Assembly (NCBI GenBank): GCA_963708135.1
Contig: OY970192.1
Location: forward strand, 128,001-192,000
Length of the DNA: 64,000 nt
Source of the DNA: an uncultured Gemmatimonadales bacterium
Lineage (GTDB): Bacteria > Gemmatimonadota > Gemmatimonadetes > Longimicrobiales > RSA9
Direction of reading: 5' to 3'
The notes beneath the pieces were generated by a model. That model was not told the origin of the DNA, made no database searches, and saw only the letters and a program-made list of their open reading frames with translations. Of the stretch, positions 7,865-37,917 are shown in pieces. The translations under genes and the position numbers were made by a program. How positions within the stretch are numbered: the stretch's first letter is position 1; each line of letters begins with the position of its first letter.

Positions 7865-8644
7865 TCACCCTCCCTCGCCCACGCCCTTCCCCTCTCCCTT
7901 CGGAGGGCGAGGGCGGATGTAGCGGATGGCCATGATGACCAGCACGACCGAGAAGACGATCCGCAGCGTCGGCGCGGGGAGGCCGAGCGCGGTATGCCCG
8001 CCCAGGAGTGAGCCGAGGACGATCCCGGCCAGGAGTCCGGGCAGGAGGCCGTGGCGGACGCGGCCGGCGCGGTGGTGGATCAGGCTGCCGGTGATGCCAG
8101 CGGGGACCATGGCGGCGAGAGAAGTGCCCTGGGCGATGTGCTGGTCGAGGCCGACGAGGAGGGCGAGGACGGGGACGAGCAGCACGCCGCCGCCGATACC
8201 GAGCAGGCCCGAGAGCGTCCCCACGATGAGGCCGGTCGCGAGCAGCACGGCCAGGGCGAAGGGGGTGGGGAGCGGCGGGATCGCCGGCAGGTACGATTTG
8301 AGGGGGAGCAGCACGGCCGCGAACAGCAGGAAGGTGCCGAACCCCCGCCGGAGCGAGGCCGCGGAGACACGCCCGGCGTAGTCCGCGGCGATCTGCGCGG
8401 CGGCGACGGACCCGACGGAGATCATGAAGGCGGCGCGCCAGTCCACGGCGTCGCCGGTGGCATAGACCCAGCTGCCGACGAGGCCGGTGAAGACGACGGC
8501 CGAGAGGCTGGTGCCGTGGGCCTCGTGCTGACTGACGTGAGCCCAGCCGGTGAGAAGCGGGACCATGATGACGCCGCCGCCGAGCCCGACCAGCCCGCCG
8601 AAGAAGCCCGCGGCGAGCCCGATGAGGAGAGGGAGCAGGATCAT
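7865..8644 (-). CDS. tauE: TSUP/TauE-SafE sulfite exporter
   Basis: Duplicated GLVGLGGGVIMVP / GLLGIGGGVLLVP and AHGTSL / AQGTSL motifs; about 8 TM helices. Confidence 0.9.
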   Translation of the reverse strand: MILLPLLIGLAAGFFGGLVGLGGGVIMVPLLTGWAHVSQHEAHGTSLSAVVFTGLVGSWVYATGDAVDWRAAFMISVGSVAAAQIAADYAGRVSAASLRRGFGTFLLFAAVLLPLKSYLPAIPPLPTPFALAVLLATGLIVGTLSGLLGIGGGVLLVPVLALLVGLDQHIAQGTSLAAMVPAGITGSLIHHRAGRVRHGLLPGLLAGIVLGSLLGGHTALGLPAPTLRIVFSVVLVIMAIRYIRPRPPKGEGKGVGEGG

Positions 8645-9261
8645 GCCTGCGGCGCGGCGCCCTTCTCGACCGCGTAGCCGCGGGCGAGCCAGTCGGTCAT
8701 CCCGCCGAGCACGAGGCGGACCTCGCGGCCGTCGCGCTGCAGGAGCGAGGCGAGGGCGGCGCTGCGCACCTCGTCGCCGCAGATGACGGCGAGCGGCCGG
8801 CCCGGCGGTACCGTGGCCGTCTTCCCCCACGCCTCGGTGTAGGGGAGCAGCGCGGCGCCCGGGATGTGGCCGTACCTGTACTCGAAGGGCTCGCGCGCGT
8901 CGACGACCAGCACGTCCGGGAGGTGGCTCTCGAGCTCGTCCACGGAGATCGGCTCGATGGCGGCCGTGGGCAGGCCAGCCGCGGTCCAGGCGGCGAGGCC
9001 GCCCTCGAGTTGGCCGCGCACGTCGTAGCCGGCGTCGGTCAGGATGCGGGCGGCGATTTTCGCGATCGGCTGCGGCTCTGCGTGGATGACGAGCGGCACG
9101 TCCTTCGGCAGCATCATCTCGGTGCGCTCGGCCAGGTCGGCCCGGTTGAACTGGAGGTTCACCGCGCCGGGGATGTGCGCTGCCGCGAAGGGGCGGGGCG
9201 TGCGCAGATCGATGAGCAGCGCGCCGTCCTCCACGGCGGCGTGGACGTCTGCGGGACTCAT
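8641..9261 (-). CDS. Tandem rhodanese-domain sulfurtransferase (pseudo-domain plus active domain)
   Basis: IDLR..HIPGA and VDAREPFEY..GHIPGA motifs; only the second domain has an active-site Cys (VICGDEVRS). Confidence 0.88.
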   Translation of the reverse strand: MSPADVHAAVEDGALLIDLRTPRPFAAAHIPGAVNLQFNRADLAERTEMMLPKDVPLVIHAEPQPIAKIAARILTDAGYDVRGQLEGGLAAWTAAGLPTAAIEPISVDELESHLPDVLVVDAREPFEYRYGHIPGAALLPYTEAWGKTATVPPGRPLAVICGDEVRSAALASLLQRDGREVRLVLGGMTDWLARGYAVEKGAAPQA

Positions 9262-10046
9262 GCGGGCACCTCCTGGCCGGGGGCGGGGAGTCCGAGGTTG
9301 GCGGCCTTGATGCGCTCGAAGTCCTTGGGGAACGGCTTGGCCGACTCCTTCACGAACGCGGCGAAGCTCTCGGCGTCCGGCTGGCGCATGGCCAGGTTGA
9401 AGCGGCGCTCGAAGCCAATGGTGGAGCTGACCTTGCCGCTCATGTTGACGCCGCCGCAGGCGGAGGCGCCGTAGTGGTTCGGGTAGATCTCGACGTGGTC
9501 GGGGAGCGAGAACAGCTTGCCGCGGATGGACTCCCACTGGGTGCGCGCCCGCTCGCCCTGGTCGATCATGTCGATGGCCTGGTCGCCGAGCAGAAGATCG
9601 GGGCGGCCGACGTCGCCGACGAAGAGCGAGTCGCCGGTGAGCACGAGCCACGGCTCGTCGGTGCGGGCGTGGTCGGTCACCAGGAAGGCGGTATGCTCGG
9701 GCGTGTGGCCGGGCGTGTGGACCGCCTTGACCTCGACCTCGCCGATGCGCAGCGCCTGGCCGTCCTCGAGCGGCGTGAACGGATACTTCACGGGCGCCGA
9801 GGCGTGCAGGTAGTGCGGGGCGCCCGCCATCTCGGCGAGCTCGCGCGCGCAGGAGATGAAGTCCGCGTGCACGTGCGTCTCGAGCACGCCGACGATGGCC
9901 AGGTTGAGGTCCGCGGCCTCCAGCACGTAGAACTCGGTGCCGAGGTTGGCGATCGGATCCACGACGAGGCCCTCCTTCGCGCGCATGCAGCCGATGATGT
10001 AGGAGGCCTGCGCCAGCGGCTCGTAGCGGATCTGCTTGAAGATCAC
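9258..10046 (-). CDS. MBL-fold persulfide dioxygenase-like protein (CstB type)
   Basis: ETHVHADF, HTPGHTPEH, TGDSLFVGDVGRPDL and YPNHYGASACG...STIGFERRFN motifs. Confidence 0.85.
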   Translation of the reverse strand: MIFKQIRYEPLAQASYIIGCMRAKEGLVVDPIANLGTEFYVLEAADLNLAIVGVLETHVHADFISCARELAEMAGAPHYLHASAPVKYPFTPLEDGQALRIGEVEVKAVHTPGHTPEHTAFLVTDHARTDEPWLVLTGDSLFVGDVGRPDLLLGDQAIDMIDQGERARTQWESIRGKLFSLPDHVEIYPNHYGASACGGVNMSGKVSSTIGFERRFNLAMRQPDAESFAAFVKESAKPFPKDFERIKAANLGLPAPGQEVPA

Positions 10047-10315
10047 GGCTCCTCCTCGCCGCAGCGGACGTAGAACACGAAGCAGCCGCCCTCCTCGCCG
10101 GAATGAAGCAGCTCGTTGCCGGTGTCCTCCGCCCAGGCGGGGAAATCGGCCACCGAGCCGCGGTCGGTGGCGAGGATCTTCAGCACCTGTCCCGGGGCCA
10201 GGCCCTTGATGGCCTTCGAGGCCTTCACGATGGGCATCGGGCAGAGTAGCCCGCGGGCGTCCAGCACCTGGTCTTCGCGGAAATCGGCCACGATTCCCTC
10301 CTCGCTCGGGTCCAC
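10043..10315 (-). CDS. tusA: TusA/SirA-family sulfur carrier
   Basis: LDARGLLCPMP motif and ATDRGS..DFPAW. Start codon uncertain. Confidence 0.9.
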   Translation of the reverse strand: MDPSEEGIVADFREDQVLDARGLLCPMPIVKASKAIKGLAPGQVLKILATDRGSVADFPAWAEDTGNELLHSGEEGGCFVFYVRCGEEEP

Positions 10316-10361
10316 CGCCGGGCGCGGCCGGACGCCCGGCCGCGCGCGGCACCGGCCGTCT

Positions 10362-10967
10362 CTAGACGAACAGCGTCACGTGCGCGCGCCTTGCCTCCGA
10401 CAGGAAGGCGGCCGCGCCGGCGAACTCGACGCCGGGCAGGAAGTCGCGCTCCGTGAAGCCGAACACCTCCATGGTCATCTGGCAGGCGATGAGGCGGACC
10501 CCGGTTTCGCGCGCGGCGTCGAGCAGCTCGCGGATCGTGGCCACCCCCTTGCCCCTGAACATCGATTTCATCATGGACGTCGCCATGGTCTGCATCCCCG
10601 GCATGGCCGTGAGCAGGTCCGGCATCGGAACGGGCATCGGCATGGCGGGATTGCCCACCGGCGAGACCCGCAGCCGCTTCTCGAAGTCGCGGTGGATGAT
10701 GTTCAGCCCGTAGAAGGTGAAGAACACCGCCGTCTCCATCCCCGCCGCCGCGGCCGCCGTGGCCAGGATCAGCGGCGGGTAGGCGAAGTCGAGGGTGCCC
10801 TTCGAGGCGATGATGCAGGTCTTGCGGGCGGCCGGGTCCTTCCGAAACGCACGCGCCACCTCCTCGCGCACGATGCGCCGCACGTCCTCCTCGGTGAGCG
10901 CGGCCGCCTGGGTGGCGATGCCGCCTCCGGCGACGCCGCCGTTGCCCGGATCCTTGCGCTCAGGCAT
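10362..10967 (-). CDS. DsrE2-type (DsrE/DsrF/DrsH-like) sulfurtransferase
   Basis: IIASKGTLD, FFTFYGL, IACQMTMEVFG (conserved Cys) and C-terminal TLFV. Confidence 0.87.
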   Translation of the reverse strand: MPERKDPGNGGVAGGGIATQAAALTEEDVRRIVREEVARAFRKDPAARKTCIIASKGTLDFAYPPLILATAAAAAGMETAVFFTFYGLNIIHRDFEKRLRVSPVGNPAMPMPVPMPDLLTAMPGMQTMATSMMKSMFRGKGVATIRELLDAARETGVRLIACQMTMEVFGFTERDFLPGVEFAGAAAFLSEARRAHVTLFV

Positions 10968-11856
10968 GGCTCGGCTCCCTCCTCTCGTCCTCTCGTGCCC
11001 GGCGCGACGCCCGGCGCAGGCCGCCGAGCGCGCGTGTCGTCTGCATGGCGCGGTTGCGCCAGAACGCCGCGATCGGCCCCAGCGCCCGGGGCGCCGTCGT
11101 GTAGCGATCGGCCCGGCGGGCGGCCTCCTCCGCGAACCAGCGGAGCGTGGCCACCGCATCCTGCCGGAGCATGCTCTCGAGCGCGTAGCGCCGCTCGGCC
11201 ACCCGCAGCCCCAGCCCGAGAGCGCGGGCGCCCCGGGCCAGGTCGGCGCGGGCGAGCACCAGCCCGCTCCGCGCCGGCGCGAGCAGGGCGGCCGTCAGCT
11301 CGTGCAGCGAGCCGGCCAGGACGCCCGCGTCGAGCGGCGGCGTCTCGCGCAGGTGGATCGGCAGCGTCTCGGGCGGGCCGAGGCGCTCGGCCTCGGCGAC
11401 GAGGGCGTCCCGGAGCAGCGCGCCCCACGCCGCGTAGCACGGCGGGCCGAGCGCCTCCACGCGCTCCAGGTACGGGATCAGCCAGGAGGCGAGGTGCTCC
11501 CAGAGGAGCGCGTGGCGGGCGCGGCGCCGCAGCGCGCGGCGGGCGGCGTCGCCTTCCGCATTCTCCGCCTCGGCCAGCGCCGCGGCGAGCGAGAGCAGCG
11601 CGGCCAGGTGATCCGGCTCCGCGGGCGGCACGGCGCCGATGGCGCGCCAGAAGCCGGCCACGCGCCCGGCCGCCTCGCCGCCCATCATCCCCTCCGGCCC
11701 GAGGTAGATCGAGGCGTACGGCTGGAGCTGCAGCACGAACAGCGCGGTGTGCGCCTCCGCGTCAGGCAGCGGCGGCAGGCGCAGCAGCCGGGCCACGCGT
11801 CGGCGCTCCCGGTCGGGCGGCTCGGCCAGCGCGCCGAGGGCGCGGAGCAGCTCCAT
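10960..11856 (-). CDS. TorD/DmsD-family Mo-enzyme maturation chaperone
   Basis: PYASIY, EPDHLAALL and EHLASW motifs; lies directly downstream of the Mo subunit. Confidence 0.82.
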   Translation of the reverse strand: MELLRALGALAEPPDRERRRVARLLRLPPLPDAEAHTALFVLQLQPYASIYLGPEGMMGGEAAGRVAGFWRAIGAVPPAEPDHLAALLSLAAALAEAENAEGDAARRALRRRARHALLWEHLASWLIPYLERVEALGPPCYAAWGALLRDALVAEAERLGPPETLPIHLRETPPLDAGVLAGSLHELTAALLAPARSGLVLARADLARGARALGLGLRVAERRYALESMLRQDAVATLRWFAEEAARRADRYTTAPRALGPIAAFWRNRAMQTTRALGGLRRASRRAREDERREPSHA

Positions 11857-14798
11857 CAGCGCGGCTCCTTCCCGGCGCCGGCGAAGGCCACGGGCTCGGG
11901 CAGCCGGTACGCCTCGCGGGTCGGGCGGAGCGGGCGCATGAGCCACCAGGGCCGGCGCGAGCCGTCGGGCGAGACGGCGCCGGCGGGGCGCGCGTGGCCG
12001 AGCCAGCGGCGGTAGACGTCGTGGGCGCGGGCCGTGTCCACGGCGATGTCGCCTGCGGCATCGCCGGGTTCAGCCCTGCGCACGCGCACGGCCTGGTGCC
12101 AGCAGTGGGCGCCGGACACGGGGTCGGGCTGCACGGCAAAGGTCAGGTTCTGGTGGACCCCCACGTCCGTCCACCAGATGCGCAGCGTGTCCGGGTCGGC
12201 GGAGGCGAAGGGGCCGACGCCGGCGCGGCGGTGCAGCGCCCACGCGTCGCCGGTGTGCTCCAGGCCGACGGTGGCCATGCTCTGGCGCTGCCCGGGGCCA
12301 GCCAGCTTCCAGCGGCCCATGTGGTGGCTGCACGCGACGACGCCCGGCCGGATCCCCTCGGTGACCCAGACCTTCACGACGAAATGACCGATCTCCGTCT
12401 CGACCCGCGCGAGGTCCCCCGTACGGAGGCCGAGGCGCTCGGCGTCCCGGGTGTGCAGCCAGAGCGGGTTCGTGTGCGCGATCTCGTCCAGCCACTTGGC
12501 GTTTCCGCTGCGGGTGTGGATCTGGACGGGGACGCGGAACGTGGAGATCAGCGGCATCTGGTCCGGCTCGAGCGCGTCGGGATGAATATGGCTTCGAATG
12601 TAGGTGGGGAGCGCGTACTCCGGCCAGCCCCACGCCACGAGCGTCGGGGAGTAGAACTCGAGGCGGCCGCTCGGGGTGGGGAAGCCGCGCAGCAGCCGGC
12701 CATCGACCTCGACGCCGACGGGGCGGCGGCCTTCCGCGTCCGGCTCCGGCGCGGGCTGTGGCACGATGTTGGGCGAGTCCGGCTTCGGCGCCCGGGTGTA
12801 GGCGCGGCCGTGGCGGCCGACGTGCACGTCGTCGCGCTCCGATGCCGGCACCTCCTGCTCGTGGAGCGGCCCGACCCCCTTCGTCACCTCGAAGGCGCCG
12901 TAGCGGCGCATGTACTCGAGCGGGGTGAGGCCCTCGGCGGCGGCCTTCTCGGGAAGGCCCGGGACGGAGTTCTCGAACATCCAGCCGTAGTACTCGTCGA
13001 CGGTCAGCTTCTCGCCGGGACGGGCGCGGGACTCAAACCAGCGGCGGATGCCGAGGGAGCCGTCGGGGTCGATGCGCCAGGAGAGCTCGATCCAGAACTC
13101 GTTCTCCTCCCATACCTCGCCCGGGTTCACGTCCCGCGTGTCGGCGATGCGCTCGCCGGCGCGCTCCCGCGCCGCGCGCAGCACCGGCTGGCGGAATCCG
13201 ATCCACTGCCCGTCGTACTGCTCGTAGGAGTGGACGTCGTGGCGCTCGGAGCCGAGGCCCATGGGCAGGATGAGGTCGGCGAAGTAGGCGGTCTCGTTCC
13301 ACGTGGGGGTGAGCGCCACGTGCAGCCCGATCTTCGAGGTGTCCGTCAGCATCTCGACCCAGGAGAAGCCGTCCGGGTTCGTCCAGACCGGGTTGTAGAC
13401 GCGCGTGATGTAGACGTCGAGCCGGCCGCGGCCATCCTTCACGAGGTGCGGCAGCAGGAAGGACATCTCGAACATGCCGAGCGGGTACTCCGCGGGCCAG
13501 GAGAGGTCGTTCCAGACGTCGGGGTGCGGCGGCAGATGGATCGGCCGCGGCACGAACTTGTTCCAGCCGTTGGGATAGGTCGATCCGGGCACGGCCACGG
13601 CGCCCATGAGCGCGCTCAGCATGAAGAGCGCGCGCGAGACCTGCCAGCCGCCGAGGTTGCCGGCCGCGGCGCTCCTCCAGTTGTGAGTGGCCAGGCGGGT
13701 CCCGGCCGAGGCGACGAGGTCGGCGACCTGCTCGAGCACCGCGGCGTCCACGCCGCTCTCGCGCGCGGCGAAGTCGAAGGTGTAGTCCTGGTAGATCTCG
13801 GCCAGCACGGTCTCGAAACGGTGGAACGAGGCCTCGAGCCCCGGCTGCTCGTGCTCGAGGTACTCGGCCCAGTTCCACCAGCGGCGCACGAACTCGCGGT
13901 CGTAGCGGCGGCCGACGATCAGGTGGCGCGCGATGGCCAGGAAAATGGCGGCCTCGGAGCCGGGATACGGCGCCAGCCAGTGGTCGGCGTGGGTGGCGGT
14001 GTTGGAGAGGCGGGTATCGAGGACGACGAGCCTGGCGCCCTTCTCCCTCGCCTCGATGATCCGCTGCGCGTGGGGGTTGAAGTAGTGGCCGGCCTCGAGA
14101 TGGCTGCTCACGAGCAGGATCACGCGGGCCTCCGCGTGGTCCGGGCTGGGCCGGTCGAGGCCCATCCAGTAGTGGTAGCCGGCGCGCGCGCCAGCGGAGC
14201 AGACGTTGGTGTGCGAGTTGTGGGCGTCGAGCCCCCAGGCGGCCAGGACGCGCTCGGTGAAGCCGTCCTCGCCCGGCCGGCCCACATGGTACATCACCTC
14301 GCCCTGGCGCTCCTCGAGGATGGCGGCGCGGATCCGGCCGGCGAGCGTGTCGAGCGCCTCGTCCCAGGTCGTGCGTACCCAGCGTCCCTCGCCGCGTGCG
14401 CCGGCGCGCTTGAGCGGGAAGAGGATGCGGTCCGGATCGGTGACCTGGTTCAACGTGGCCGGCCCCTTGGCGCAGTTGCGGCCGCGCGAGCCCGGGTGCT
14501 CCGGGTTCCCCTCGAAGCGGCGTACCTGGAGCGTCTCGCGGTCGACGTAGGCCAGGAGCCCGCACGCGGACTCGCAGTTGAAGCAGGTGGTCGGCACGAG
14601 GGCGTAGCGCCGCTCGACGCGGCGCGGCCAGGCCCTGGAATCGAGCTCGACCCAGTCGTCCCAGCGCTCCTTCGGCGGGAACGCCGCCAGGTGGACACGG
14701 CTGGGCCCGGGATAGAACGTCTCCCCGCGCGCCTCGACCTCCGCGCGCGCCGCGGAGACCCGCTCGTTCAGTCGGTCGAGATCGGCTGGCCTGGTCAT
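11856..14798 (-). CDS. DMSO-reductase-family molybdopterin oxidoreductase catalytic subunit (no Tat signal)
   Basis: CFNCESAC...NCAKG [4Fe-4S] motif; HTNVC putative Cys Mo ligand; ETAYFADLILP; C-terminal HTRSGN...NPLW MGD-binding domain. Confidence 0.9.
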   Translation of the reverse strand: MTRPADLDRLNERVSAARAEVEARGETFYPGPSRVHLAAFPPKERWDDWVELDSRAWPRRVERRYALVPTTCFNCESACGLLAYVDRETLQVRRFEGNPEHPGSRGRNCAKGPATLNQVTDPDRILFPLKRAGARGEGRWVRTTWDEALDTLAGRIRAAILEERQGEVMYHVGRPGEDGFTERVLAAWGLDAHNSHTNVCSAGARAGYHYWMGLDRPSPDHAEARVILLVSSHLEAGHYFNPHAQRIIEAREKGARLVVLDTRLSNTATHADHWLAPYPGSEAAIFLAIARHLIVGRRYDREFVRRWWNWAEYLEHEQPGLEASFHRFETVLAEIYQDYTFDFAARESGVDAAVLEQVADLVASAGTRLATHNWRSAAAGNLGGWQVSRALFMLSALMGAVAVPGSTYPNGWNKFVPRPIHLPPHPDVWNDLSWPAEYPLGMFEMSFLLPHLVKDGRGRLDVYITRVYNPVWTNPDGFSWVEMLTDTSKIGLHVALTPTWNETAYFADLILPMGLGSERHDVHSYEQYDGQWIGFRQPVLRAARERAGERIADTRDVNPGEVWEENEFWIELSWRIDPDGSLGIRRWFESRARPGEKLTVDEYYGWMFENSVPGLPEKAAAEGLTPLEYMRRYGAFEVTKGVGPLHEQEVPASERDDVHVGRHGRAYTRAPKPDSPNIVPQPAPEPDAEGRRPVGVEVDGRLLRGFPTPSGRLEFYSPTLVAWGWPEYALPTYIRSHIHPDALEPDQMPLISTFRVPVQIHTRSGNAKWLDEIAHTNPLWLHTRDAERLGLRTGDLARVETEIGHFVVKVWVTEGIRPGVVACSHHMGRWKLAGPGQRQSMATVGLEHTGDAWALHRRAGVGPFASADPDTLRIWWTDVGVHQNLTFAVQPDPVSGAHCWHQAVRVRRAEPGDAAGDIAVDTARAHDVYRRWLGHARPAGAVSPDGSRRPWWLMRPLRPTREAYRLPEPVAFAGAGKEPR

Positions 14799-14877
14799 CG
14801 CTTCCTTCTCCCGGCGCGGCCGGTCCGGCCGGCGCGGTGGGTCATGGCGTGCGTCATCGATCCCTCTCCCGGCCCGG

Positions 14878-16401
14878 TCACGCCAGCGGCACGGCCTGGC
14901 CCGCCTGCACGTAGGCGTGCTCGTAGGCCAGCACGCCGGCGAGGGCGGCGGCGGCGGTCCACGCGCCGAGCCACGGCGCGCCGATGGCGACGAGCGAGAG
15001 CACGAGCCCCGCGCGGTACCAGAGCGCGTACCGTCCGCTGGTGAGCTCGTGCGCCGCGAGGGCCGCGTGGGCGCTCGCGTGCGGCAGGGCGTGCTCCGCG
15101 AGCAGGAGGAGCAGGTGCGCGAGCGCGCCGCCGCCCACGACGCGCAGGAGCGCCGGCGTCGCGGCCGGTTCGAGCGCGAGCGCCACGGGCACCAGCGCCG
15201 CGGCGCCGAGCAGCACGGCCTGCGCCAGCAGGTGCACGGGAGCGAGCGGGCTCTGCCAGAGGTCGCGGCCCCGCGCCTGCGCGAACAGGAACGCGGTATA
15301 GGCGGCGGTGGCGGCCGCGAGCGGACCGCCGAGCGCCGCGAGCGGCCCTGCCCATCCGGGCGCCCCCGCCAGGGCCGCGACGAAGTGGGCGAGCAGCACG
15401 AGCGCGTAGGCGCCGATGATGAAGCCGCCGCGCACCAGCCAGCTGCGCCACTGCGGGCGGGTGAACAGGTAGTGGAACCGCTCCGGGTGCTCGAGGTCCA
15501 AGATGAGGATCGCGCCCGTGGCGGCCAGGAAGGCGCCGGCCAGCACGGGAGCGGCCCACAGCCAGAGCGGATCGCGGCCGCCGAGGGCGCCCGCCAGCAC
15601 GAGCAGCAGGGGCACGAGGTAGGCGCCCGCGGCGATCCCCTTGGTCCACGTGTAGAGGCCGACGCGCCAGTCCCAGGGCGCGCGGTGGGCCACGTCGTAG
15701 CTGAGCAGCGCCGCCGCCGAGCTGTTCGGCCGGCCCGGATGGCCGGCGGGCACCACGTGCGCGCCGGCCGGCTGCTCGGCCCACATGTACAGCCCGCCGT
15801 CGGGGCGGCGCGCCGCGAGCGGGTCGAGCGTGGCCTGGTGGGCGCCGCGGTAGAACAGCTTCGGGCGCGTCCCTTTCTCCGGGCGCCTGACCTGGACGGC
15901 ATCGCGCTGCACGATGGCCGCCACCTTCGAGCGCGGATCGTCCAGGTCCCCGACCAGGATGGCCTCCGCCGGGCACACCACGACGCAGGCCGGCTCGAGC
16001 CCCACCTCCAGCCGGTGCGCGCACAGGTTGCATTTCTCGGCCGCGTGGTCGTCGGGGTTGATGAAGATCGCGTCGTAGGGGCAGGCTGCGATGCACGCCT
16101 TGCAGCCGATGCAGATGGACTTGTCGAAGTCCACGATGCCGTCGGGCCGCTGGTGCATGGCGGCCGTCGGGCAGGCGGCCACGCACGGCGCGTCCTCGCA
16201 CTGGTTGCAGCGCGTGACCTGGAAGGCGCGGCGCGCCTCCGGGAAGACGCCCACGTCCACGTACTTCACGTACGTGCGGGTCACCGACAGCGGAACGCGG
16301 TTCTCGGACCTGCACGCCGTCGTGCACGCGTGGCAGCCGATGCAGCGGGTCTGGTCGATAACCTTCCCCCAGCGGACCGTCGGCGCGGCCGCGGCTTCCA
16401 T
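14878..16401 (-). CDS. 4x[4Fe-4S] ferredoxin fused to an NrfD/PsrC-type membrane anchor
   Basis: CIGCHACTTAC, CNQCEDAPCVAAC, CIGCKACIAAC and CNLC...PACVVVC motifs, then the NrfD motif DLEHPERF...SWLVRG and about 8 TM helices. Confidence 0.9.
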   Translation of the reverse strand: MEAAAAPTVRWGKVIDQTRCIGCHACTTACRSENRVPLSVTRTYVKYVDVGVFPEARRAFQVTRCNQCEDAPCVAACPTAAMHQRPDGIVDFDKSICIGCKACIAACPYDAIFINPDDHAAEKCNLCAHRLEVGLEPACVVVCPAEAILVGDLDDPRSKVAAIVQRDAVQVRRPEKGTRPKLFYRGAHQATLDPLAARRPDGGLYMWAEQPAGAHVVPAGHPGRPNSSAAALLSYDVAHRAPWDWRVGLYTWTKGIAAGAYLVPLLLVLAGALGGRDPLWLWAAPVLAGAFLAATGAILILDLEHPERFHYLFTRPQWRSWLVRGGFIIGAYALVLLAHFVAALAGAPGWAGPLAALGGPLAAATAAYTAFLFAQARGRDLWQSPLAPVHLLAQAVLLGAAALVPVALALEPAATPALLRVVGGGALAHLLLLLAEHALPHASAHAALAAHELTSGRYALWYRAGLVLSLVAIGAPWLGAWTAAAALAGVLAYEHAYVQAGQAVPLA

Positions 16402-16719
16402 TCCCGACTCCTCTCCTGGGGGGCGTCTCACGGGTGTGGGGATGCGACACCGCCGCCGCGTCTTCGGAGGCGGGGAAGTCGGCGTCCGGGCCGGAATGGT
16501 CACGGTCGCGCGCTCGTTTGTCAAACCCGGGGCGGCGACCTCCGGCAGCGGGCCGGCGCGGCGGCCGCTGGCATGGCCCCTGCACCCTGCCATCGTTCGC
16601 TCGCCCAACGCTTTCCAGGAGGCTCTCACGATGCGCACGATGCCGCCGGACCCAGCCGGGCGGGAGGGCGCGCCCCCGCTCCGCCGCCGGCCCGGCCGGG
16701 GCGGGGAAGGCGTGGCGTG

Positions 16720-17415
16720 ATGCCGCCGCTGTTCCGCGACCGGACGGACGCCGGCCGCCGCCTGGCCGCCGCGCTGTCGGAGTATGCCCGGCGGCCGGAC
16801 GTGATCGTGCTCGGGCTGCCCCGCGGCGGCGTGCCGGTGGCGTACGAGGTCGCGCGCGAGCTGGGCGCGCCGATGGACGTCTTTCTCGTGCGCAAGCTCG
16901 GCACGCCCGGTCACGAGGAGCTGGCGCTCGGCGCCATCGCATCGGGCGGCGTGCGGGTGCTGAACCGCCGGGTCATCGACATGCTGGCCATCCCGGAGCG
17001 CACCGTCGCGGCCGTGGCGGCGCAGGAGCAGCAGGAGCTGGAGCGGCGCGAGCGGGAGTACCGGGACGGGCGGCCGGTGCCGGACCTGGTCGGGCGCACG
17101 GCGATCCTGGTGGATGATGGCCTTGCCACCGGCTCGACCATGCGGGCGGCGGCCGCGGCCGTGCGGGCGCAGGGTCCGGCCCGGACGGTCGTGGCGGTGC
17201 CGGTGGCGGCGCCCGAGACGTGCGAAGCGCTGCGCGGCGAGGTCGACGAGGTGATCTGCGCGGCGACGCCCGAGCCGTTCCGGGCCGTCGGCTTCTGGTA
17301 CGAGCAGTTCGAGCAGACGAGTGACGCGGAGGTCAGGGAGCTGCTCGAGCGGGCCCGGCGCGAGAGGTCGGCGGACGACGCGCGGTCCCCGGGCGCGTCG
17401 GGGCCGCCAGGCTAG
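16720..17415 (+). CDS. Phosphoribosyltransferase-domain protein
   Basis: FRDRTDAGRRLA, LPRGGVPV and VDDGLATGSTM (PRPP-binding) motifs. Confidence 0.88.
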   Translation: MPPLFRDRTDAGRRLAAALSEYARRPDVIVLGLPRGGVPVAYEVARELGAPMDVFLVRKLGTPGHEELALGAIASGGVRVLNRRVIDMLAIPERTVAAVAAQEQQELERREREYRDGRPVPDLVGRTAILVDDGLATGSTMRAAAAAVRAQGPARTVVAVPVAAPETCEALRGEVDEVICAATPEPFRAVGFWYEQFEQTSDAEVRELLERARRERSADDARSPGASGPPG

Positions 17416-18265: not shown

Positions 18266-19942
18266 TTGGCGGAGGACCGACAGCAGCAACGCCGGCTGAT
18301 CCTGGACACGATCTTTCTGGGCGTGGCCGGCGCCCTGGCCGCGCAGGTGTTCACGTTCATGGTCCGGCTCGCCGACCGGGTCTTCCTCGGCCACATCGCG
18401 TTTTACACACCGCCCGGCATCCCCGCGGAAGGGGGCGCCGCGCAGCAGGTGATCGGGCCGTACGGGCTGTGGCTGGTCCCGCTCGCGACGACGCTCGGCG
18501 GGCTTATCGTCGGGATCCTGATCGAGCGCGTCGCGCCCGAGGCGGAGGGGCACGGGACCGGCACGGTGGTACGCTCGTTCCACCGCGCGGAGGGCTTCCT
18601 GCGGGCGCGCGTGCCGCCGGTCAAGACGCTGGCCTCGGCGATCACGATCGGCTCGGGCGGCTCGGCCGGCCGCGAGGGGCCGATCGCGCTGATCACGGCC
18701 GGCCTCGGCTCCTGGTACGCCACGGCGACGCGCCGCCCGGACTCCGAGCGGCGCCTCCTGCTGCTGATCGGCATGGCGGCCGGCCTGGCGGCGATCTTCC
18801 GCTCACCCGTCGGAACGGCGCTCTTCGCCATCGAGGTGCTCTACTCCGACATGGTCTTCGAGACCGGCGCACTGCTCTACACGATGCTCGCGTCGATCAT
18901 CGCCTATGCCGTGAACGGCATCTTCGTCGGCTACCGCCCACTCTTCCTCGTCCCCGCCAACATCTCGCTCGCCGGCGCGCTGGACTACGCGGGGTACGTG
19001 CTGCTCGGCGTGGCGGCCGGGCTCATGGCGATCCTGATCCCGGTCGTCTTCTACGGCACCCGGGACCTGTTCCGCCGGTTGCCGATCCGCCGCTTTCTGA
19101 AGCCTGCGCTCGGCGGGCTGGGGCTCGGCCTGCTGGCCATCGCGTTTCCACAGGTGATCGGCGGCGGCTACGGCTGGATGCAGATGGCGATCGACGGCCG
19201 GCTCACGCTGCTGACCATGCTGCTGCTCATGTTCGCCAAGCTGGTCGGGCTGAGCCTGACGGTCTCCTCGGGCGGCTCCGGCGGCGTGTTCGCGCCCACC
19301 CTGTTCGTGGGGGCCATGCTGGGAGGGTTCCTCGCGGCGGTGCTGCACGAGCCCGCGGCGCCCTTCGTGGTGGTGGGGATGGGCGCGGTCTTCGGCGGCG
19401 CCGCGCACGTGCCGATCGCCACGCTCATGATGGTCACGGAGATGACCGGCGGCTACACGCTGCTCGTCCCCGGCGCCCTGGCGATCATGATCAGCTACCT
19501 CGTGCAGACCCGCTTCTCCGGCCGGCTCCGCTACCGCAGCCTGTACGAGGCGCAGGTGCCGAGCCGCGCGGACTCGCCCGCACACCATGCCGAGCACCTG
19601 CAGATCGCGCTCAGGATCCTGAAGGAGCGCGGCGTCTCCAACACGCCCGAGATGGGCCAGTTCGACCTGCTCTCCTTGCTGCGCTCCGGGATCCCGGCCG
19701 AGCTGCCCGGAGACCGGCGCCTCACCATCGGCGTGCTCAAGGCGGACAGCCCCTACGCCGGCAAGCCGATCCCGGGCGAGGGTGGCCAGCTGGACCCCGA
19801 CAGCTCGATCCTCGCCATCATCCGCGGCGAGCACATGATGGCCCCCCGGCCGGACACGGTGCTCGAGCCGGGGGACCGGCTCTTCGTCGTGACGACCGCG
19901 GAGGGGCTGGAGCGGCTCAGCGAGCACATGGACCGCTGGTAG
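18266..19942 (+). CDS. ClC-family chloride channel/transporter with C-terminal TrkA-C (RCK_C) domain
   Basis: GSAGREGP, GGVFAP and EMTGGY motifs; C-terminal IIRGEHMMAPRPDTVLEPGD. TTG start. Confidence 0.9.
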   Translation: MAEDRQQQRRLILDTIFLGVAGALAAQVFTFMVRLADRVFLGHIAFYTPPGIPAEGGAAQQVIGPYGLWLVPLATTLGGLIVGILIERVAPEAEGHGTGTVVRSFHRAEGFLRARVPPVKTLASAITIGSGGSAGREGPIALITAGLGSWYATATRRPDSERRLLLLIGMAAGLAAIFRSPVGTALFAIEVLYSDMVFETGALLYTMLASIIAYAVNGIFVGYRPLFLVPANISLAGALDYAGYVLLGVAAGLMAILIPVVFYGTRDLFRRLPIRRFLKPALGGLGLGLLAIAFPQVIGGGYGWMQMAIDGRLTLLTMLLLMFAKLVGLSLTVSSGGSGGVFAPTLFVGAMLGGFLAAVLHEPAAPFVVVGMGAVFGGAAHVPIATLMMVTEMTGGYTLLVPGALAIMISYLVQTRFSGRLRYRSLYEAQVPSRADSPAHHAEHLQIALRILKERGVSNTPEMGQFDLLSLLRSGIPAELPGDRRLTIGVLKADSPYAGKPIPGEGGQLDPDSSILAIIRGEHMMAPRPDTVLEPGDRLFVVTTAEGLERLSEHMDRW

Positions 19943-20405: not shown

Positions 20406-20846
20406 TCACGCCTCCGGGTCGATGAGGTCGAGTCCCGTGGTCTCATCCTTCCGCCGTCGCAGCGCTGCCGGGTCCTCCGTGAGCATCAACTCCAGCGTCG
20501 GCCGGACGTGCGCCTCCAGCAGGTGCCCGCCCATGGCGCTGCCGTCGCGGCGGGCCACGACCACGTGCGCGTGGACCATGGCCGAGCCGTCCTCCTTGCG
20601 CGCCACGTTGCCGACGAGGGAGACCACCTCGACCTGCTCATCGACGGGGTTCTCCTCGTAGCTCCTGGTGTCCCAGTTCCAGTAGCCGAGCTTCGCATCC
20701 CGGAAGGCCCCCAGGGCCGTGAAGTGGGCGCCGTCGAGGTCGTTCTCCTCGGCGAAGCGGGTGAGGGTGTCGTTCACCTCGTCGCCGATCTCGAAGATGA
20801 GCGCGTAGGTGCGCTCCGTGCCACTGTCGAGCAGCTTGGACTTCAT
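20406..20846 (-). CDS. PPC/DUF296-domain protein
   Basis: EVVSLVGN, HAHVVV, GGHL and VRPTLE motifs. Confidence 0.88.
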   Translation of the reverse strand: MKSKLLDSGTERTYALIFEIGDEVNDTLTRFAEENDLDGAHFTALGAFRDAKLGYWNWDTRSYEENPVDEQVEVVSLVGNVARKEDGSAMVHAHVVVARRDGSAMGGHLLEAHVRPTLELMLTEDPAALRRRKDETTGLDLIDPEA

Positions 20847-23800
20847 CGGTCCTTCCCGTTCCTCTTCATCAGCCAGGTGATCCCGCCCGCCAGGGCGAGC
20901 GTCGCGCCGACGCCGATGGCGAGGGCGGCGGGGGAGCGCGTCGAGCGCCGCACCTGCGGCGGCGTGAGCCGGTCGAGGCGCCGCTCGGGCGGCTCGCCGG
21001 CCGCGGGCAGGCGCTGCCGGTTCATGCCGAGCCGGATCAGCTCGGCCAGGTGAAGCGGACGGCGTCCGGCGCCCTCCATCACCTGCTCGCGGCAGCTGAA
21101 GCCGTCCGCCACCAGCACGGTGTCGCGGTCGGCGTTCCGGGCGGCGGGGAGCAGCACCTGCTCGCCGATGGCCATGGAGACGTCGTAGTGGCCCTGCTCG
21201 AACCCGAAGGAGCCGGCCAGTCCGCAGCAGCCCGACTGGAGCTCCTCGAAATCGAGGCCGAGCGCGTTCAGCACCTTCTTCTCCGGGCCCATCTTCATGA
21301 TGGCCTTGTGGTGGCAGTGCCCGTGCACGATGGCGCGCATCCCCTCCATGTTCGGGAGCGAGAAGCTCTCGGGCGCACGCTCCGTCAGGAACTCGGCCAG
21401 CGTGCAGGTCTGGTCGCGCAGGCGCTTGGCGTCCTCGTCGTGCGGGAGCATGCCGATCAACTCGTCGCGGAATACGGAGGTGCAGCTCGGCTCGAGCCCC
21501 ACGACGCGCACGCCGGAACGGATGGCGGGGCGCAGCTCGTCCACAATGCGCTCGAGAAACCGCTTCGCCAGGTCGAGCATGCCGTAGTCGTAGAGGGGGC
21601 GGCCGCAGCACAGCTGCGCCTTCGGCACGATGACCTGGAACCCGGCCGACTCGAGCACCTCCGTGGCGGCGATCAGCGTCTCGGGGAAGAAGTGGTTGTT
21701 GAAGGTGTCGGGCCAGAGGATCACGGGCACGTGCCCCTGGTTCACGGGCGCGCGCTCGCCGAACCAGTCGCGGAAGGTATGGTCGGCGAACATCGGGATC
21801 TGGCGCTCCGGCGTGATCCCGGCCACCGCGTGCGCGACTCGCTTGAGCCCGGGCGCGTGGGTGAGGAAGTTGACCAGGCGCGGGATCCGCTTCGCGATGC
21901 GCGCCCACACCATGATCAGCCCGAAGGCGTAGGCGTAGCGGGGGCGTAGCCGCCCCTCGTAGTAGTGCGAGAGGAACTCGGCCTTGTAGGTGGCGATGTC
22001 CACGTTCACGGGGCAGTCGCCCTTGCACCCCTTGCACGCGAGACACAGGTCGAGCGAGTCCTTCACCTCCTCGCTCTTCCAGCCGTCCGTGATCACCTCG
22101 CCCTGGAGCATCTCGAAGAGCAGGTGGGCGCGGCCGCGCGTCGTGTCCTTCTCCTCCATCGTCACCTGATAGCTCGGGCACATCGTTCCGCCGCCCTTGC
22201 GCCGGCACTTGCCCACGCCCACGCAGCGCAGCGTCGCGTGCGCGAAGCTGCCCTGGTCCTGTGGGAAGCTGAAGTGCGTCTCCGGCGTCCACGGCGCGTA
22301 GTCCTCGCCCAGCCGCAGGTTCTGCACGCGCGCGTACGGGTCCACGACCTTGCCGGGGTTCATCTTCCAGTCGGGGTCCCAGGTGCGCTTGAAGTCGCGG
22401 AACGCCTGCACCAGCCGGGGCCCGTACATGACATCGAGCAGGTCGCCGCGCGCCTGGCCGTCGCCGTGCTCGCCGGAGAGCGAGCCGCCGTACTTGTGGA
22501 CGACGAGCTCGGCCGCCTCGCGGGTGAACGCCTGATAGCGCTCGATGCCGTCGGCGGAGGTCAGGTCGAAGTCGATGCGCGTGTGGATGCAGCCCTGCCC
22601 GAAGTGGCCGTAGAGCGAGCACTGGTAGCCGTACTTGTCGAAGAGCTGGCGCAGGTCGCGCAGGTACGGCGCGACGCTGTCCACCGGCACGGCGGAGTCC
22701 TCCCAGCCCGGCCAGGTGTCGGGGTCGCCCGGGATGAACGCGGTCGCGCCGAGCCCGGACTCGCGCACCTCCCAGACCTTCGACTCCTTCTCGTCGTCGT
22801 CGTAGAGGCGCATGGCGGGCGGGTTCTTCTCCGCCTCCAACGCGGCCATGCAGGCGCGGGCGCTGGTGTCCGCCTCCTCCTTGGTGTCGCCGCGAAACTC
22901 GACCAGCAGCCAGCCGTTGCCGTCGGGGAGCAGGTCGAGGTCCTCCACCCGCAGCCCCTTCTCCTTCATGTCGTTGATGAGGTTGTCGTCGATGCCCTCG
23001 AGCCCGATCGGCTTGAAGTCGCGGATGCGGGTCACGTGGCTCGCGGCGTCGTAGACATCGTCGTAGCCCATGACCACCAGGCTGCGCGCGCGCGGGTTCT
23101 CAATGAGCGTGACCCTGGCCTCCAGCACGAAGACGCACGTGCCCTCGGTGCCGACCAGCGCGCGCGCCACGTTGAAGCCGTTCTCCGGCAGCAGCCAGTA
23201 CAGGTTGTAGCCCGAGACGCGGCGCAGGATGTCAGGATAGCCGGTGCGGATGTCCTCGGCGTAGCGGTCGCGCAGGTCGCGCAGGTCGCGGTAGATCTCG
23301 CCCTTCCGCCCGCCCGCGGCGATGATGCGCTCGAGCTCGTCCTCCGCGGTGGGGCCGACCCTCATGCGCACGCCGTCGTAGGTCAGCACCTCGAGCTCGA
23401 GCACCTGGTGCTCGGTGCGCGGGCCGGGCCCGTAGAACTCGGCCATGACCGAGTGGATGCCGCACGAGTTGTTGCCGATCATGCCGCCCAGCACGCAATG
23501 GTTGTGCGTGGCCGGATCCGGCCCGTAGGTGAGGCCGTGCTCGCCCGCCGCGTCGCGCAGGTCGTCCAGGATCGTGCCCGGCTGCACGCGCGCCCAGCGC
23601 TCCTTCGCGTTCACCTCCAGCACGTCGTTCACGTATTTCGAGGTGTCGATCACCACGGCATGGTTGCAGCACTGGCCGCCCAGGCTGGTGCCGCCGCCGC
23701 GCGGCAGCACGGGCGCGCCATGGCGGTGCGCGATCCGGACGGCCTCGACGATGTCCTCCACATCGCGCGGCAGCACCACGCCGATCGGCGGCTGGCGGTA

Positions 23801-23983
23801 GTTCGAGGCGTCCGCGGCCCACAGCGCACGGTCGCCGTCGCCGAAGCGGACTTCGCCGCGCAGCGTGGCCGAGAGCTCCGCCTCGAGCGCGGCGACATCG
23901 ACCTCGGCCGCGCCGGCCCGGGGCGCCGGGCCCACGCCCAGCATCCGCCCGCGCCGCCGCTGGGCCGCCCCGGGGAGGCTCAT
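20843..23983 (-). CDS. FAD-binding and Fe-S oxidoreductase (YdiJ/GlcD-GlcF fusion; D-2-hydroxyacid dehydrogenase-like)
   Basis: RGGGTSLGGQ, SGEHGDG, CVGVGKC, CLACKGCKGDC and two CCG domains; C-terminal hydrophobic helix. Confidence 0.88.
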   Translation of the reverse strand: MSLPGAAQRRRGRMLGVGPAPRAGAAEVDVAALEAELSATLRGEVRFGDGDRALWAADASNYRQPPIGVVLPRDVEDIVEAVRIAHRHGAPVLPRGGGTSLGGQCCNHAVVIDTSKYVNDVLEVNAKERWARVQPGTILDDLRDAAGEHGLTYGPDPATHNHCVLGGMIGNNSCGIHSVMAEFYGPGPRTEHQVLELEVLTYDGVRMRVGPTAEDELERIIAAGGRKGEIYRDLRDLRDRYAEDIRTGYPDILRRVSGYNLYWLLPENGFNVARALVGTEGTCVFVLEARVTLIENPRARSLVVMGYDDVYDAASHVTRIRDFKPIGLEGIDDNLINDMKEKGLRVEDLDLLPDGNGWLLVEFRGDTKEEADTSARACMAALEAEKNPPAMRLYDDDEKESKVWEVRESGLGATAFIPGDPDTWPGWEDSAVPVDSVAPYLRDLRQLFDKYGYQCSLYGHFGQGCIHTRIDFDLTSADGIERYQAFTREAAELVVHKYGGSLSGEHGDGQARGDLLDVMYGPRLVQAFRDFKRTWDPDWKMNPGKVVDPYARVQNLRLGEDYAPWTPETHFSFPQDQGSFAHATLRCVGVGKCRRKGGGTMCPSYQVTMEEKDTTRGRAHLLFEMLQGEVITDGWKSEEVKDSLDLCLACKGCKGDCPVNVDIATYKAEFLSHYYEGRLRPRYAYAFGLIMVWARIAKRIPRLVNFLTHAPGLKRVAHAVAGITPERQIPMFADHTFRDWFGERAPVNQGHVPVILWPDTFNNHFFPETLIAATEVLESAGFQVIVPKAQLCCGRPLYDYGMLDLAKRFLERIVDELRPAIRSGVRVVGLEPSCTSVFRDELIGMLPHDEDAKRLRDQTCTLAEFLTERAPESFSLPNMEGMRAIVHGHCHHKAIMKMGPEKKVLNALGLDFEELQSGCCGLAGSFGFEQGHYDVSMAIGEQVLLPAARNADRDTVLVADGFSCREQVMEGAGRRPLHLAELIRLGMNRQRLPAAGEPPERRLDRLTPPQVRRSTRSPAALAIGVGATLALAGGITWLMKRNGKDR

Positions 23984-26039: not shown

Positions 26040-26690
26040 ATGCCCCAACTATTCTCCCGCACTTCCAACTCCGCGATTCGCGTCGTCCTGTTCGTGGGCA
26101 TTGTCGGTGCGCTGGCCACTCCGGTCATCCTCATGGGCTGGGCCCGCACGCCGTACTACACGGGGCAGGATGATCCCGTCGAGCAGCCGATCCCCTTCGA
26201 CCACCGGCACCACGTCCGCGACGACGGCATCGACTGCATGTACTGCCACTACCTGGCGAAGAGCACGCCGTACGCGGGCGTCCCGCCGACCTCCGTCTGC
26301 CTCAACTGCCACGCCCAGATCTGGAGCCAGTCGGCCTTCCTGCAGCCGGTGTGGAACAGCTACCTGACCGGCCGGCCGATTCGCTGGCGGCGGATCAACA
26401 GCGTGCCGGACTTCGTCTACTTCGACCACTCGATCCACGTGCGGAAGGGCGTCGGCTGCGAGACGTGCCACGGGCGGGTCGATCTGATGGGCCGCGTCTA
26501 CCAGGCCAGGCCTCTGAACATGGGGTGGTGCCTGGAGTGCCACCGTGACCCGGCCAAGTACCTGCGGCCGGTCGAGGATGTGACGGAGATGGGCTACGAG
26601 CCAGCGCGGCCCCAGTCCGTGCTGGGGCCCATGCTGATGAAGAAATACAACGTACGGAGCAGGACCGACTGCACGACGTGTCACCGCTGA
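26040..26690 (+). CDS. actA: Alternative complex III pentaheme cytochrome c ActA
   Basis: Five CxxCH motifs (CMYCH, CLNCH, CETCH, CLECH, CTTCH), N-terminal TM, QPIPFDHRHH. Confidence 0.92.
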   Translation: MPQLFSRTSNSAIRVVLFVGIVGALATPVILMGWARTPYYTGQDDPVEQPIPFDHRHHVRDDGIDCMYCHYLAKSTPYAGVPPTSVCLNCHAQIWSQSAFLQPVWNSYLTGRPIRWRRINSVPDFVYFDHSIHVRKGVGCETCHGRVDLMGRVYQARPLNMGWCLECHRDPAKYLRPVEDVTEMGYEPARPQSVLGPMLMKKYNVRSRTDCTTCHR

Positions 26691-26700
26691 GGTGGAGCCA

Positions 26701-29700: not shown

Positions 29701-29842
29701 GGTGCTGCACGACCTGGGCACGCGGCCGCGCACGATGTACCTGGCGCGCATCGCGAACCCGAACCCCGCGCTGAAGAAGACCTCGGCCGGCCGCTCCGTG
29801 GAGCAGCTCGAGGGCGAGCAGAACACGCGCGAGGAGTACTAG
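26701..29842 (+). CDS. actB: Alternative complex III ActB (Mo-enzyme-like plus Fe-S domain), interrupted by a +1 frameshift at about 29350
   Basis: YWRGLDEL, Tat motif [29 protein letters not shown] and [13 protein letters not shown]. The conserved [16 protein letters not shown] continues only after skipping one A. Confidence 0.88.
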
Positions 29843-29843
29843 C

Positions 29844-35590: not shown

Positions 35591-35594
<4 letters not shown>
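34446..35594 (+). CDS. coxB: Cytochrome c oxidase subunit II with fused cytochrome c (caa3)
   Basis: DVIHSF, CuA motif CAEYCGVGHSRM, C-terminal CLACH. Confidence 0.95.
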
Positions 35595-37233
<1,639 letters not shown>

Positions 37234-37237
<4 letters not shown>

Positions 37238-37911: not shown

Positions 37912-37917
37912 GCGACG

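Follow-up and report, generated by a model that had tools for sequence, protein, structure and literature searches.

We analyzed a 64,000-nucleotide stretch of DNA (the window) from contig OY970192.1 of an uncultured Gemmatimonadales bacterium, in which eight genes at positions 7865 to 16401 combine persulfide-handling proteins with a membrane-anchored molybdenum (Mo) enzyme. The raw lists of open reading frames (ORFs) in the window are crowded with spurious frames because of its G+C content of 72%, and the gene model was built on a frame plot of third-position G+C (GC3), on start codons and upstream Shine-Dalgarno-like sequences, and on Pfam matches. The eight genes all lie on the minus strand and exactly span 16401..7865. 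The first (14878..16401) encodes a 507-residue fusion of an iron-sulfur (FeS) domain to an NrfD domain (Pfam Fer4_11, 1e-22; NrfD, 1.2e-14) and is preceded by the Shine-Dalgarno-like sequence AGGAGAGGAG. It is followed by the gene for the 980-residue catalytic subunit (P0001; 11856..14798; Pfam Molybdop_Fe4S4, Molybdopterin and Molydop_binding) of the molybdenum-bis(pyranopterin guanine dinucleotide) (Mo-bisPGD) type and by that for a 298-residue TorD/NarJ-like chaperone (10960..11856; Nitrate_red_del, 1e-10), the C-terminal half of which is uncharacterized. Two sulfur carriers come next, a 201-residue DsrE2-type protein (10362..10967; DrsE_2, 1.3e-50; PDB 2qs7 and 3pnx) and an 82-residue TusA with a CPMP motif (10043..10291; TusA, 1.1e-22). 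The last three genes encode a 262-residue persulfide dioxygenase (PDO) of the metallo-β-lactamase (MBL) fold and the CstB type (type III), with the metal motif HVHADF (P0006; 9258..10046; PDB 3tp9), a 206-residue double rhodanese (Rhd-Rhd) with two stretches matching Pfam Rhodanese (P0007; 8641..9261), and a 259-residue anion exporter of the TauE/SafE family (7865..8644; TauE, 2e-45).

Five of the seven junctions overlap and two are gaps: in gene order, a 79-nt gap, overlaps of 1 nt (the start of the TorD-like gene on the stop of the Mo gene) and 8 nt, a 70-nt gap, and three overlaps of 4 nt. The putative operon is flanked on one side by a convergent gene that ends at 7702 (+) and on the other by a divergent gene for a phosphoribosyltransferase (16717..17415, +). 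The GC3 plot, the starts and the Pfam matches bear out an earlier note on this DNA, which had delimited the same eight co-oriented, mostly overlapping or near-abutting genes, with limits that coincide exactly with the TauE stop and the FeS-NrfD start. A promoter and terminator scan of the operon returned no promoter-like site and a single terminator-like site within the Mo gene, no more than in shuffled sequence, and a Pfam scan of the flanks found no regulator gene beside the operon.

The persulfide half of the operon resembles a solved fusion protein. P0006 aligns to residues 10-258 of PDB 3tp9 (2.8e-47) and to 3r2u (8.9e-39), and more weakly to human ETHE1 (9.6e-14), while residues 9-199 of P0007, over its whole length, align to residues 282-473 of 3tp9. 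The first rhodanese domain of P0007 lacks the active-site cysteine and the second has it in the motif CGDEVRS. Collinearity with 3tp9 and the single active-site cysteine indicate that P0006 and P0007 are a split form of a PDO/pseudo-rhodanese/rhodanese protein, presumably the architecture of Staphylococcus aureus CstB. Thus, the cst-like domain content proposed in the earlier note was correct. The DsrE2 protein scored 199.7 bits against the NCBIfam model SulfCarrDsrE2, slightly below its cut-off of 210. Like the S. aureus cst operon (TauE, CstA, CstB and sulfide:quinone oxidoreductase (SQR), under the regulator CstR), the window has TauE, TusA, DsrE-type carriers and a CstB-type PDO followed by pseudo-rhodanese and rhodanese, but the latter are two genes, and the counterparts of both CstA and CstB are divided among separate genes. 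The window operon also differs in having no flanking regulator, in having no SQR, either within it by Pfam or in the genome by the models used (PF07992, NF049943), and in adding a membrane molybdoenzyme, which the cst operon lacks. The carrier families rhd, tusA and dsrE2 are encoded together here as in sulfur oxidizers of the rDsr and sHdr types, but they are unlinked to dsr or shdr genes.

Elsewhere in the same genome there is another double-rhodanese gene (G000:C1:1816764-1817375, or L143:8764-9381), which has 75% identity to P0007, and a 42-residue fragment, 83% identical to P0007, lies at G000:C1 1821244-1821369. Both sit among transposase genes of the IS91, IS4, IS21 and Mutator types, which suggests that the sulfur module, or part of it, was moved by mobile elements.

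The window's genome is a single contig of 5.45 Mb, 97.65% complete by marker genes. Searches of this genome found no SoxB, DsrA or AprA above cut-off and no RuBisCO large subunit, and none of its ten Pyr_redox_2 proteins is an SQR, the sole candidate being NDH-2 (9.4e-113). The only protein of the SUOX fold is a 236-residue, MsrP-like one, and no SorA/SUOX-type sulfite-oxidizing enzyme was found in the genome. Taken together, these searches found no sulfite oxidizer other than the candidate in the operon. The genome contains one PDO of the operon type and, by our search, no second copy of TusA or DsrE2. Its single CsoR-family gene lies 3.8 Mb from the operon and keeps the copper-type histidine. 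The earlier note had seen no SQR, Sox or Dsr gene in the window, in agreement with our Pfam scan of the window ORFs, and genome-wide SQR, SoxB and DsrA were likewise not found; sHdr was not searched for. The respiratory cluster that it had mentioned was recovered in the window at 26040-38241, and consists of a complete alternative complex III (ACIII; ActA-F-like, including ActD) directly followed by subunits II, I, III and IV of a caa3-type oxidase.

Anatomy and relatives of the molybdoenzyme

P0001 contains an FS0 motif of the form CxxCxxxC...C (C72-x2-C75-x3-C79...C109), and its Cys200 aligns with Cys173 of Thermus thermophilus PsrA, which we take to be the Mo ligand. No twin-arginine (RR) motif was found in P0001 or in its ten aligned close relatives, among which the N-terminus is conserved; the more distant relatives P0132 and P0182 carry RRxFLK. 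In the fusion protein the FeS domain starts at residue 1, holds 16 cysteines in four cluster motifs and has neither a signal peptide nor a twin-arginine translocation (Tat) motif; a membrane anchor of the NrfD/PsrC type makes up the C-terminal part. Since neither the Mo subunit nor the FeS domain has an export signal, the peripheral parts of the enzyme should face the cytoplasm, and the cytoplasmic location predicted in the earlier note still appears right.

Profile searches did not place the enzyme in a named family. P0001 reached no equivalog cut-off in NCBIfam, its best match being PhsA (177 bits against a cut-off of 694), and no SoeA model was among its 22 matches. The FeS-NrfD protein matched TtrB best (181 bits, under the cut-off of 416). 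The best solved relatives of P0001 were PsrA (2vpw, 4.8e-32) and then ArrA. Relatives in the ESM Atlas had generic names only, and the shorter relatives of the FeS domain that a search brought up were mostly fragments cut by contig ends, with no named SoeB among them. PsrABC from T. thermophilus (PDB 2vpz) and PhsABC are thus the best structural and profile relatives, at about 30% identity, and have in common with the window enzyme the cofactor motifs, the cysteine ligand and the logic of an A-B-C module. They are Tat-exported and face the periplasm, whereas the window enzyme has no Tat motif, and P0001 is about 200 residues longer than PsrA and PhsA and has insertions specific to the family as well as a conserved extension at the C-terminus.

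In its architecture the enzyme resembles SoeABC, the cytoplasmic sulfite:quinone oxidoreductase known from Allochromatium vinosum, Aquifex aeolicus and Ruegeria pomeroyi, which disposes of cytoplasmic sulfite. SoeA has a mass of about 109 kDa and is, like P0001, a Mo-bisPGD subunit with an N-terminal FeS site. As described in excerpts of PMC8076601, SoeABC also matches the window enzyme in having no Tat signal, cytoplasmic peripheral parts, and a four-cluster FeS module with an NrfD-type anchor. There are three differences. SoeB and SoeC are separate proteins, whereas both modules are fused in the 507-residue window protein, as they also are in Thermomicrobium roseum, Rhodococcus jostii and Natrinema. 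The TorD-like gene is part of the core in the window family. The hosts differ as well: the window family occurs in Gemmatimonadota, Acidobacteriota, Actinomycetota, Chloroflexota and others, and the survey in the same excerpts reports SoeC only from Proteobacteria, three Clostridia and Aquificae. A second, ‘Soe-like’ cluster of Thioalkalivibrio, compared here by its description in excerpts of PMC6620896 alone, is likewise related to SoeABC and Tat-less, and its substrate is unproven; it differs from the window system in consisting of three genes and in its chemolithoautotrophic host.

Several other candidates were set aside. The MOLY cluster of sulfur disproportionators has, in the excerpted description (PMC9676032), a large subunit with a signal peptide and a 191-residue FeS subunit without NrfD. 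A tblastn search of plasmids returned no Rhodobacterales SoeA: the Pseudosulfitobacter matches were formate dehydrogenases, the Thioclava match was a different, 712-residue enzyme, and the Azoarcus match belongs to an arsenic-linked cluster adjoining an ACR3 arsenite-efflux gene, which we read as Arx-like. Two full-length Tat-less proteins with 46-48% identity (P0129 and P0133) have no cysteine at the Mo-ligand position, and P0133 also lacks the FS0 cysteines; by these residues they may be degenerate, non-catalytic paralogs.

Distribution and gene neighborhoods of the family

A word-indexed search with P0001 gave at least 8000 candidates, all past 1e-10, of which the best 120 are 72-81% identical to it. 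Where names are given, the relatives include Armatimonadota, Gemmatimonadaceae, Dormibacteraceae, Gaiellaceae, Limnocylindrales and others. A scan of species-representative genomes confirmed at least 761 of at least 774 candidate stretches, and the family is very large and highly conserved, at 69-81% identity over at least eight phyla. Cultured holders are R. jostii RHA1 and T. roseum in a sister clade and a Mycobacterium sp. isolate in the window clade. This is a widespread, unnamed family of Tat-less molybdoenzymes with fused B and C subunits.

We calculated a tree of 37 rows, in which the long-branched rows for L010 and L062, intended for the window clade, are wrong ORFs and were disregarded. 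The 16 rows of the window clade group together with full support; their branches are short and out of step with taxonomy, a Gaiellaceae row standing, for example, beside Gemmatimonadales rows. Close to this clade in the tree, at 48-62% identity, stand T. roseum, R. jostii, Natrinema and P0128, along with Tat-bearing forms (37-48%). A long branch with a support of 100 splits the whole family set from the Psr/Phs-like representatives. Sulfurovum is present in the tree only as a 713-residue piece of an interrupted gene. On the Sulfurovum mangrovi plasmid (L142, 8001-11061) this relative from the Tat clade is matched in two pieces, with a longest open stretch of 742 residues, and the table of the record lists no gene there; the gene may be broken or have a recoded stop.

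We searched 80 of the at least 761 loci (66-81% identical to P0001; loci are numbered with the prefix L) with the eight operon proteins and four neighbor families. Neighbors within 10 kb were counted for the 46 loci flanked on each side by at least 5 kb. A FeS-NrfD gene adjoined the Mo gene in all of these (46/46), and in 35 the next gene downstream of the Mo gene was TorD-like. PDO was found in 17 of the 46 and a double rhodanese in 15. A SulP permease took the place of TauE in 10. DsrE2 and TusA occurred in 7 each, and ArsR-family and SQR-like genes in 4 each; ArsR-family genes were present in 9 of all 80 loci. At least one of PDO, DsrE2 and TusA was found in 17 of the 46, rising to 22 when an exporter was also counted. 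The frequency of PDO compares with a chance expectation of 0.8-2.3% per search window (p below 1e-16), a p-value that overstates the independence of the loci because they are related to one another.

The PDO-linked loci belong to Gemmatimonadota, Acidobacteriota, Actinomycetota and Binatia, and the linkage takes several forms, with the sulfur genes downstream, upstream or on the opposite strand. The gene order of the window is seen in L006, L030 and L062; the carriers are upstream of the Mo core in L008, L019 and L085; PDO-Rhd is on the opposite strand in L014, L026, L028 and L029, and directly downstream in L035, L066 and L071. All eight genes occur in the same order in a Gemmatimonadales metagenome-assembled genome (MAG; L006), at 52-81% identity per protein, and a Gaiellaceae MAG (L030) has the first seven in that order with a SulP permease where TauE stands. 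The recurrence of the order in these two MAGs indicates that the operon arrangement is more than chance. The linkage of the Mo enzyme to PDO, TusA and DsrE2 that the earlier note had put forward is therefore far above chance and extends over many phyla, but it is not the rule, as the count for PDO makes clear.

In some loci SQR or regulator genes lie near the Mo genes. L042 contains, in a row on one strand, an SQR-like gene, a gene for a 452-residue PDO-Rhd fusion, and FeS-NrfD, Mo and TorD-like genes. L052 and L039 each have an SQR-like gene at a distance of 5-6 kb from the Mo enzyme genes; the one in L052 is a type II SQR (3.4e-104 against human SQOR). The presence of SQR beside the Mo enzyme in these three loci indicates that the Mo enzyme complements SQR and does not replace it, and its position with SQR-like and PDO-Rhd genes in L042 and with SQR in L052 places it after the SQR and PDO steps. 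The statement in the earlier note that the Mo enzyme stands ‘in place of SQR’ is thus true of its position in the window operon only.

A Pfam scan of 128 same-strand neighbors added TauE next to the Mo genes of L006, L013 and L039, regulators of the CsoR family in L034 and L039, and Mrp/NBP35 in the Mycobacterium locus; it showed no other sulfite-producing enzyme. In T. roseum a CsoR-family regulator, FeS-NrfD and Mo genes stand in a row. CsoR-family genes therefore adjoin the Mo genes in three relatives of the window locus (T. roseum, L039 and L034), a parallel to the CstR control of the cst operon. Two of these three regulators keep both cysteines and are missing the histidine four residues before the second cysteine, which we take to be the pattern of a persulfide sensor rather than of a copper sensor. 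On plasmid pRHL3 of R. jostii, DsrE, TusA, FeS-NrfD, Mo and Mrp/NBP35 genes stand in a row, with three MBL-fold genes, two ArsR genes and a thioredoxin gene nearby, and genes for the fused anchor, the Mo subunit and Mrp/NBP35 occur in Natrinema.

Other features of these loci recur as well. Downstream of the Mo gene, L055 (Mycobacterium sp.), L123 (R. jostii) and L125 (Natrinema) have the gene for the Mrp/NBP35 FeS-cluster carrier; it replaces the TorD-like gene in the sister clade, and the Mycobacterium locus has both. The FeS-NrfD and Mo genes are 0.7-3 kb apart in L014, L033, L043, L045, L046, L051, L059, L060 and L084, from Pyrinomonadaceae and other Acidobacteriota, and a DUF1905/OmdA gene is found in the insert in at least L014, L045, L046 and L059. 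A gene for a CLC-type anion channel lies near the Mo operon in the window (18266-19942) and directly downstream of it in L062 (15321-16547) and L079 (13764-15770), and may represent a third recurrent anion transporter besides TauE and SulP.

At the genome level we sampled 401 genomes from one GTDB class, centered on a MAG labeled Gammaproteobacteria (G001); the sample includes a Gemmatimonadales MAG (G002), and we therefore read the class as Gemmatimonadetes. A match to the Mo enzyme at 1e-40 was present in 160 of the 401 genomes. PDO was found in 131 of these 160 and in 166 of the 241 genomes without the Mo enzyme. The public labels of L022 (genome G001, Gammaproteobacteria) and L012 (Enterobacteriaceae), both from MAG records, look wrong, since the L022 genome falls in the same class sample as the Gemmatimonadales MAG.

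Proposed sulfite oxidation and alternative substrates

The gene contexts point to a sulfur oxyanion formed after the SQR and PDO steps, for which sulfite is the simplest candidate, and the architecture matches the one put forward for SoeABC (PMC8076601). For these reasons we favor, as somewhat probable, the reading that the Mo enzyme is a SoeABC-like cytoplasmic sulfite:quinone oxidoreductase that completes a route from sulfane sulfur to sulfate. Between the two functions offered in the earlier note, both of them putative, the Soe-like transfer of electrons from sulfite to the quinone pool suits the contexts better than a Psr/Sre-like exchange with polysulfide. The operon would then encode a self-contained cytoplasmic route. 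The rhodanese would mobilize sulfane sulfur from thiosulfate, polysulfide or the persulfides of cysteine breakdown, TusA and DsrE2 would pass it between cysteines as persulfide, and the dioxygenase would use O2 to convert persulfide into sulfite. The Mo enzyme would oxidize sulfite to sulfate, as SoeABC does. The two electrons would reach a quinone bound in the NrfD domain by way of FS0 and four [4Fe-4S] clusters and then enter the ACIII-caa3 chain. The anion would be exported by TauE, or by SulP in the relatives. More generally, the Mo family probably serves aerobic heterotrophs of soils and sediments as a means of detoxifying sulfite in the cytoplasm and as a source of electrons.

Several points weigh against this assignment. 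No activity, substrate or expression data were found for any family member. Among named proteins, those closest in profile and structure are polysulfide and thiosulfate reductases and ArrA, and no named full-length Tat-less representative was found above about 50% identity. The core of FeS-NrfD, Mo and TorD-like genes often stands alone, with no PDO, TusA or DsrE2 within 10 kb in 29 of the 46 well-flanked loci. In the class sample the association of the Mo enzyme with PDO is weak (odds ratio 2.0, p = 0.004, uncorrected for phylogeny and genome completeness; 2.1 without six flagged unpublished genomes), and no PDO was matched in 29 of the 160 genomes that have the Mo enzyme. In several loci TusA and DsrE2 are immediate neighbors of the Mo genes; a plain sulfite oxidase would have no obvious need of them. 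The fused CstB of S. aureus reportedly yields thiosulfate and not free sulfite, and the true substrate of the Mo enzyme could thus be thiosulfate. Finally, the Soe-like second cluster of Thioalkalivibrio was, according to excerpts of PMC6620896, induced by arsenite, which implies that Tat-less relatives of Soe need not act on sulfite.

The placement of the carriers raises the alternative that the Mo enzyme acts directly on carrier-bound sulfur, a persulfide or thiosulfonate on TusA or DsrE2, by stepwise transfer of oxygen atoms with the electrons going to quinone, and that PDO is a parallel aerobic branch. DsrE2 or DsrE and TusA adjoin FeS-NrfD and Mo on the same strand in R. jostii pRHL3, L008, L019, L085, L026, L029, L030, L062 and the window, and the window's genome gave no DsrA and no further copies of TusA or DsrE2. 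To our knowledge, no Mo-bisPGD enzyme takes a protein persulfide, and we know of no precedent for a four- or six-electron oxidation at one Mo site, both of which argue against this alternative. The carriers of known sulfur oxidizers, in the excerpted account of PMC11094781, are encoded beside the oxidizing unit that they feed, which is in its favor. Against it, DsrE2 or TusA is near the Mo genes in only 7 of the 46 well-flanked loci compared with 17 for PDO, and many loci have the core with no carrier gene in the vicinity. We consider direct action on carrier-bound sulfur unlikely. Its extension, in which the Mo enzyme would be a third kind of cytoplasmic sulfur-oxidizing unit beside rDsr and sHdr, independent of O2, fed by TusA and DsrE2, with quinone as the acceptor and sulfite or sulfate as the product, is in our estimate also improbable.

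The named relatives and the lack of an SQR in the genome suggest a different function, that of a cytoplasmic polysulfide or sulfur reductase, or in reverse a sulfide dehydrogenase with quinone that substitutes for the missing SQR. PhsA and PsrA are the closest named profiles and structures, the Mo-ligand cysteine is conserved, and sulfide oxidation by quinone is thermodynamically favorable. Such a substitution is at odds with the SQR-like genes near the Mo genes in L042, L052 and L039, which show that the two are not alternatives, and the SulP and TauE exporters beside the core indicate an oxyanion product. The long, fully supported branch that separates the family from Psr/Phs-like representatives and the PhsA score far below its cut-off also speak against it, and we regard this function as doubtful. 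Least probable is that the Mo enzyme acts on another oxyanion or metalloid (thiosulfate, tetrathionate, arsenite or selenate) and that the persulfide link reflects shared regulation or co-transfer, for although a split CstB may yield thiosulfate, ArsR-family regulators are frequent neighbors, the departure of the window clade from taxonomy indicates that the genes move between lineages, and the Thioalkalivibrio cluster responded to arsenite (PMC6620896, in excerpts), no ars, selenium or tetrathionate genes are among the recurrent neighbor families and the PDO linkage is kept through many arrangements and phyla.

Many aerobic heterotrophs have SQR and PDO but no recognized sulfite oxidase. A cytoplasmic sulfite:quinone oxidoreductase of the kind we favor would fill this gap and give ‘detoxifying’ sulfur oxidation an energy-conserving step, and it would change the sulfur-cycle inventories of Gemmatimonadota, Acidobacteriota, Actinomycetota, Chloroflexota and others. 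Were the enzyme instead the O2-independent third unit, a large share of soil and sediment heterotrophs would be wrongly counted as lacking sulfur-oxidizing capacity by current annotation. In the limited literature searched, we found no description of the fused Tat-less family or of its link to PDO, TusA and DsrE2. A metagenome study of sediments based on KEGG Orthology reports, in the excerpts available, that SoeABC was undetected in all samples and that direct sulfite oxidizers were scarce (PMC12345210); K21307-K21309 and soeA are absent from one of its supplement files. Five of our loci bear isolate labels with station codes of that study, and their link to it is unconfirmed.

Two further gene groups lie in the window outside the operon. 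Just downstream of the respiratory cluster, at 39011-42764, three genes encode a molybdoenzyme of the xanthine-dehydrogenase/CO-dehydrogenase family, with 2Fe-2S, FAD and MoCo-binding subunits. At 20843-25782 on the minus strand, a 1046-residue FAD-linked oxidase is fused to FeS and CCG domains; its gene shares base 23983 with an upstream gene for a thiamine-pyrophosphate-dependent enzyme and is followed downstream by a PCC-domain gene.

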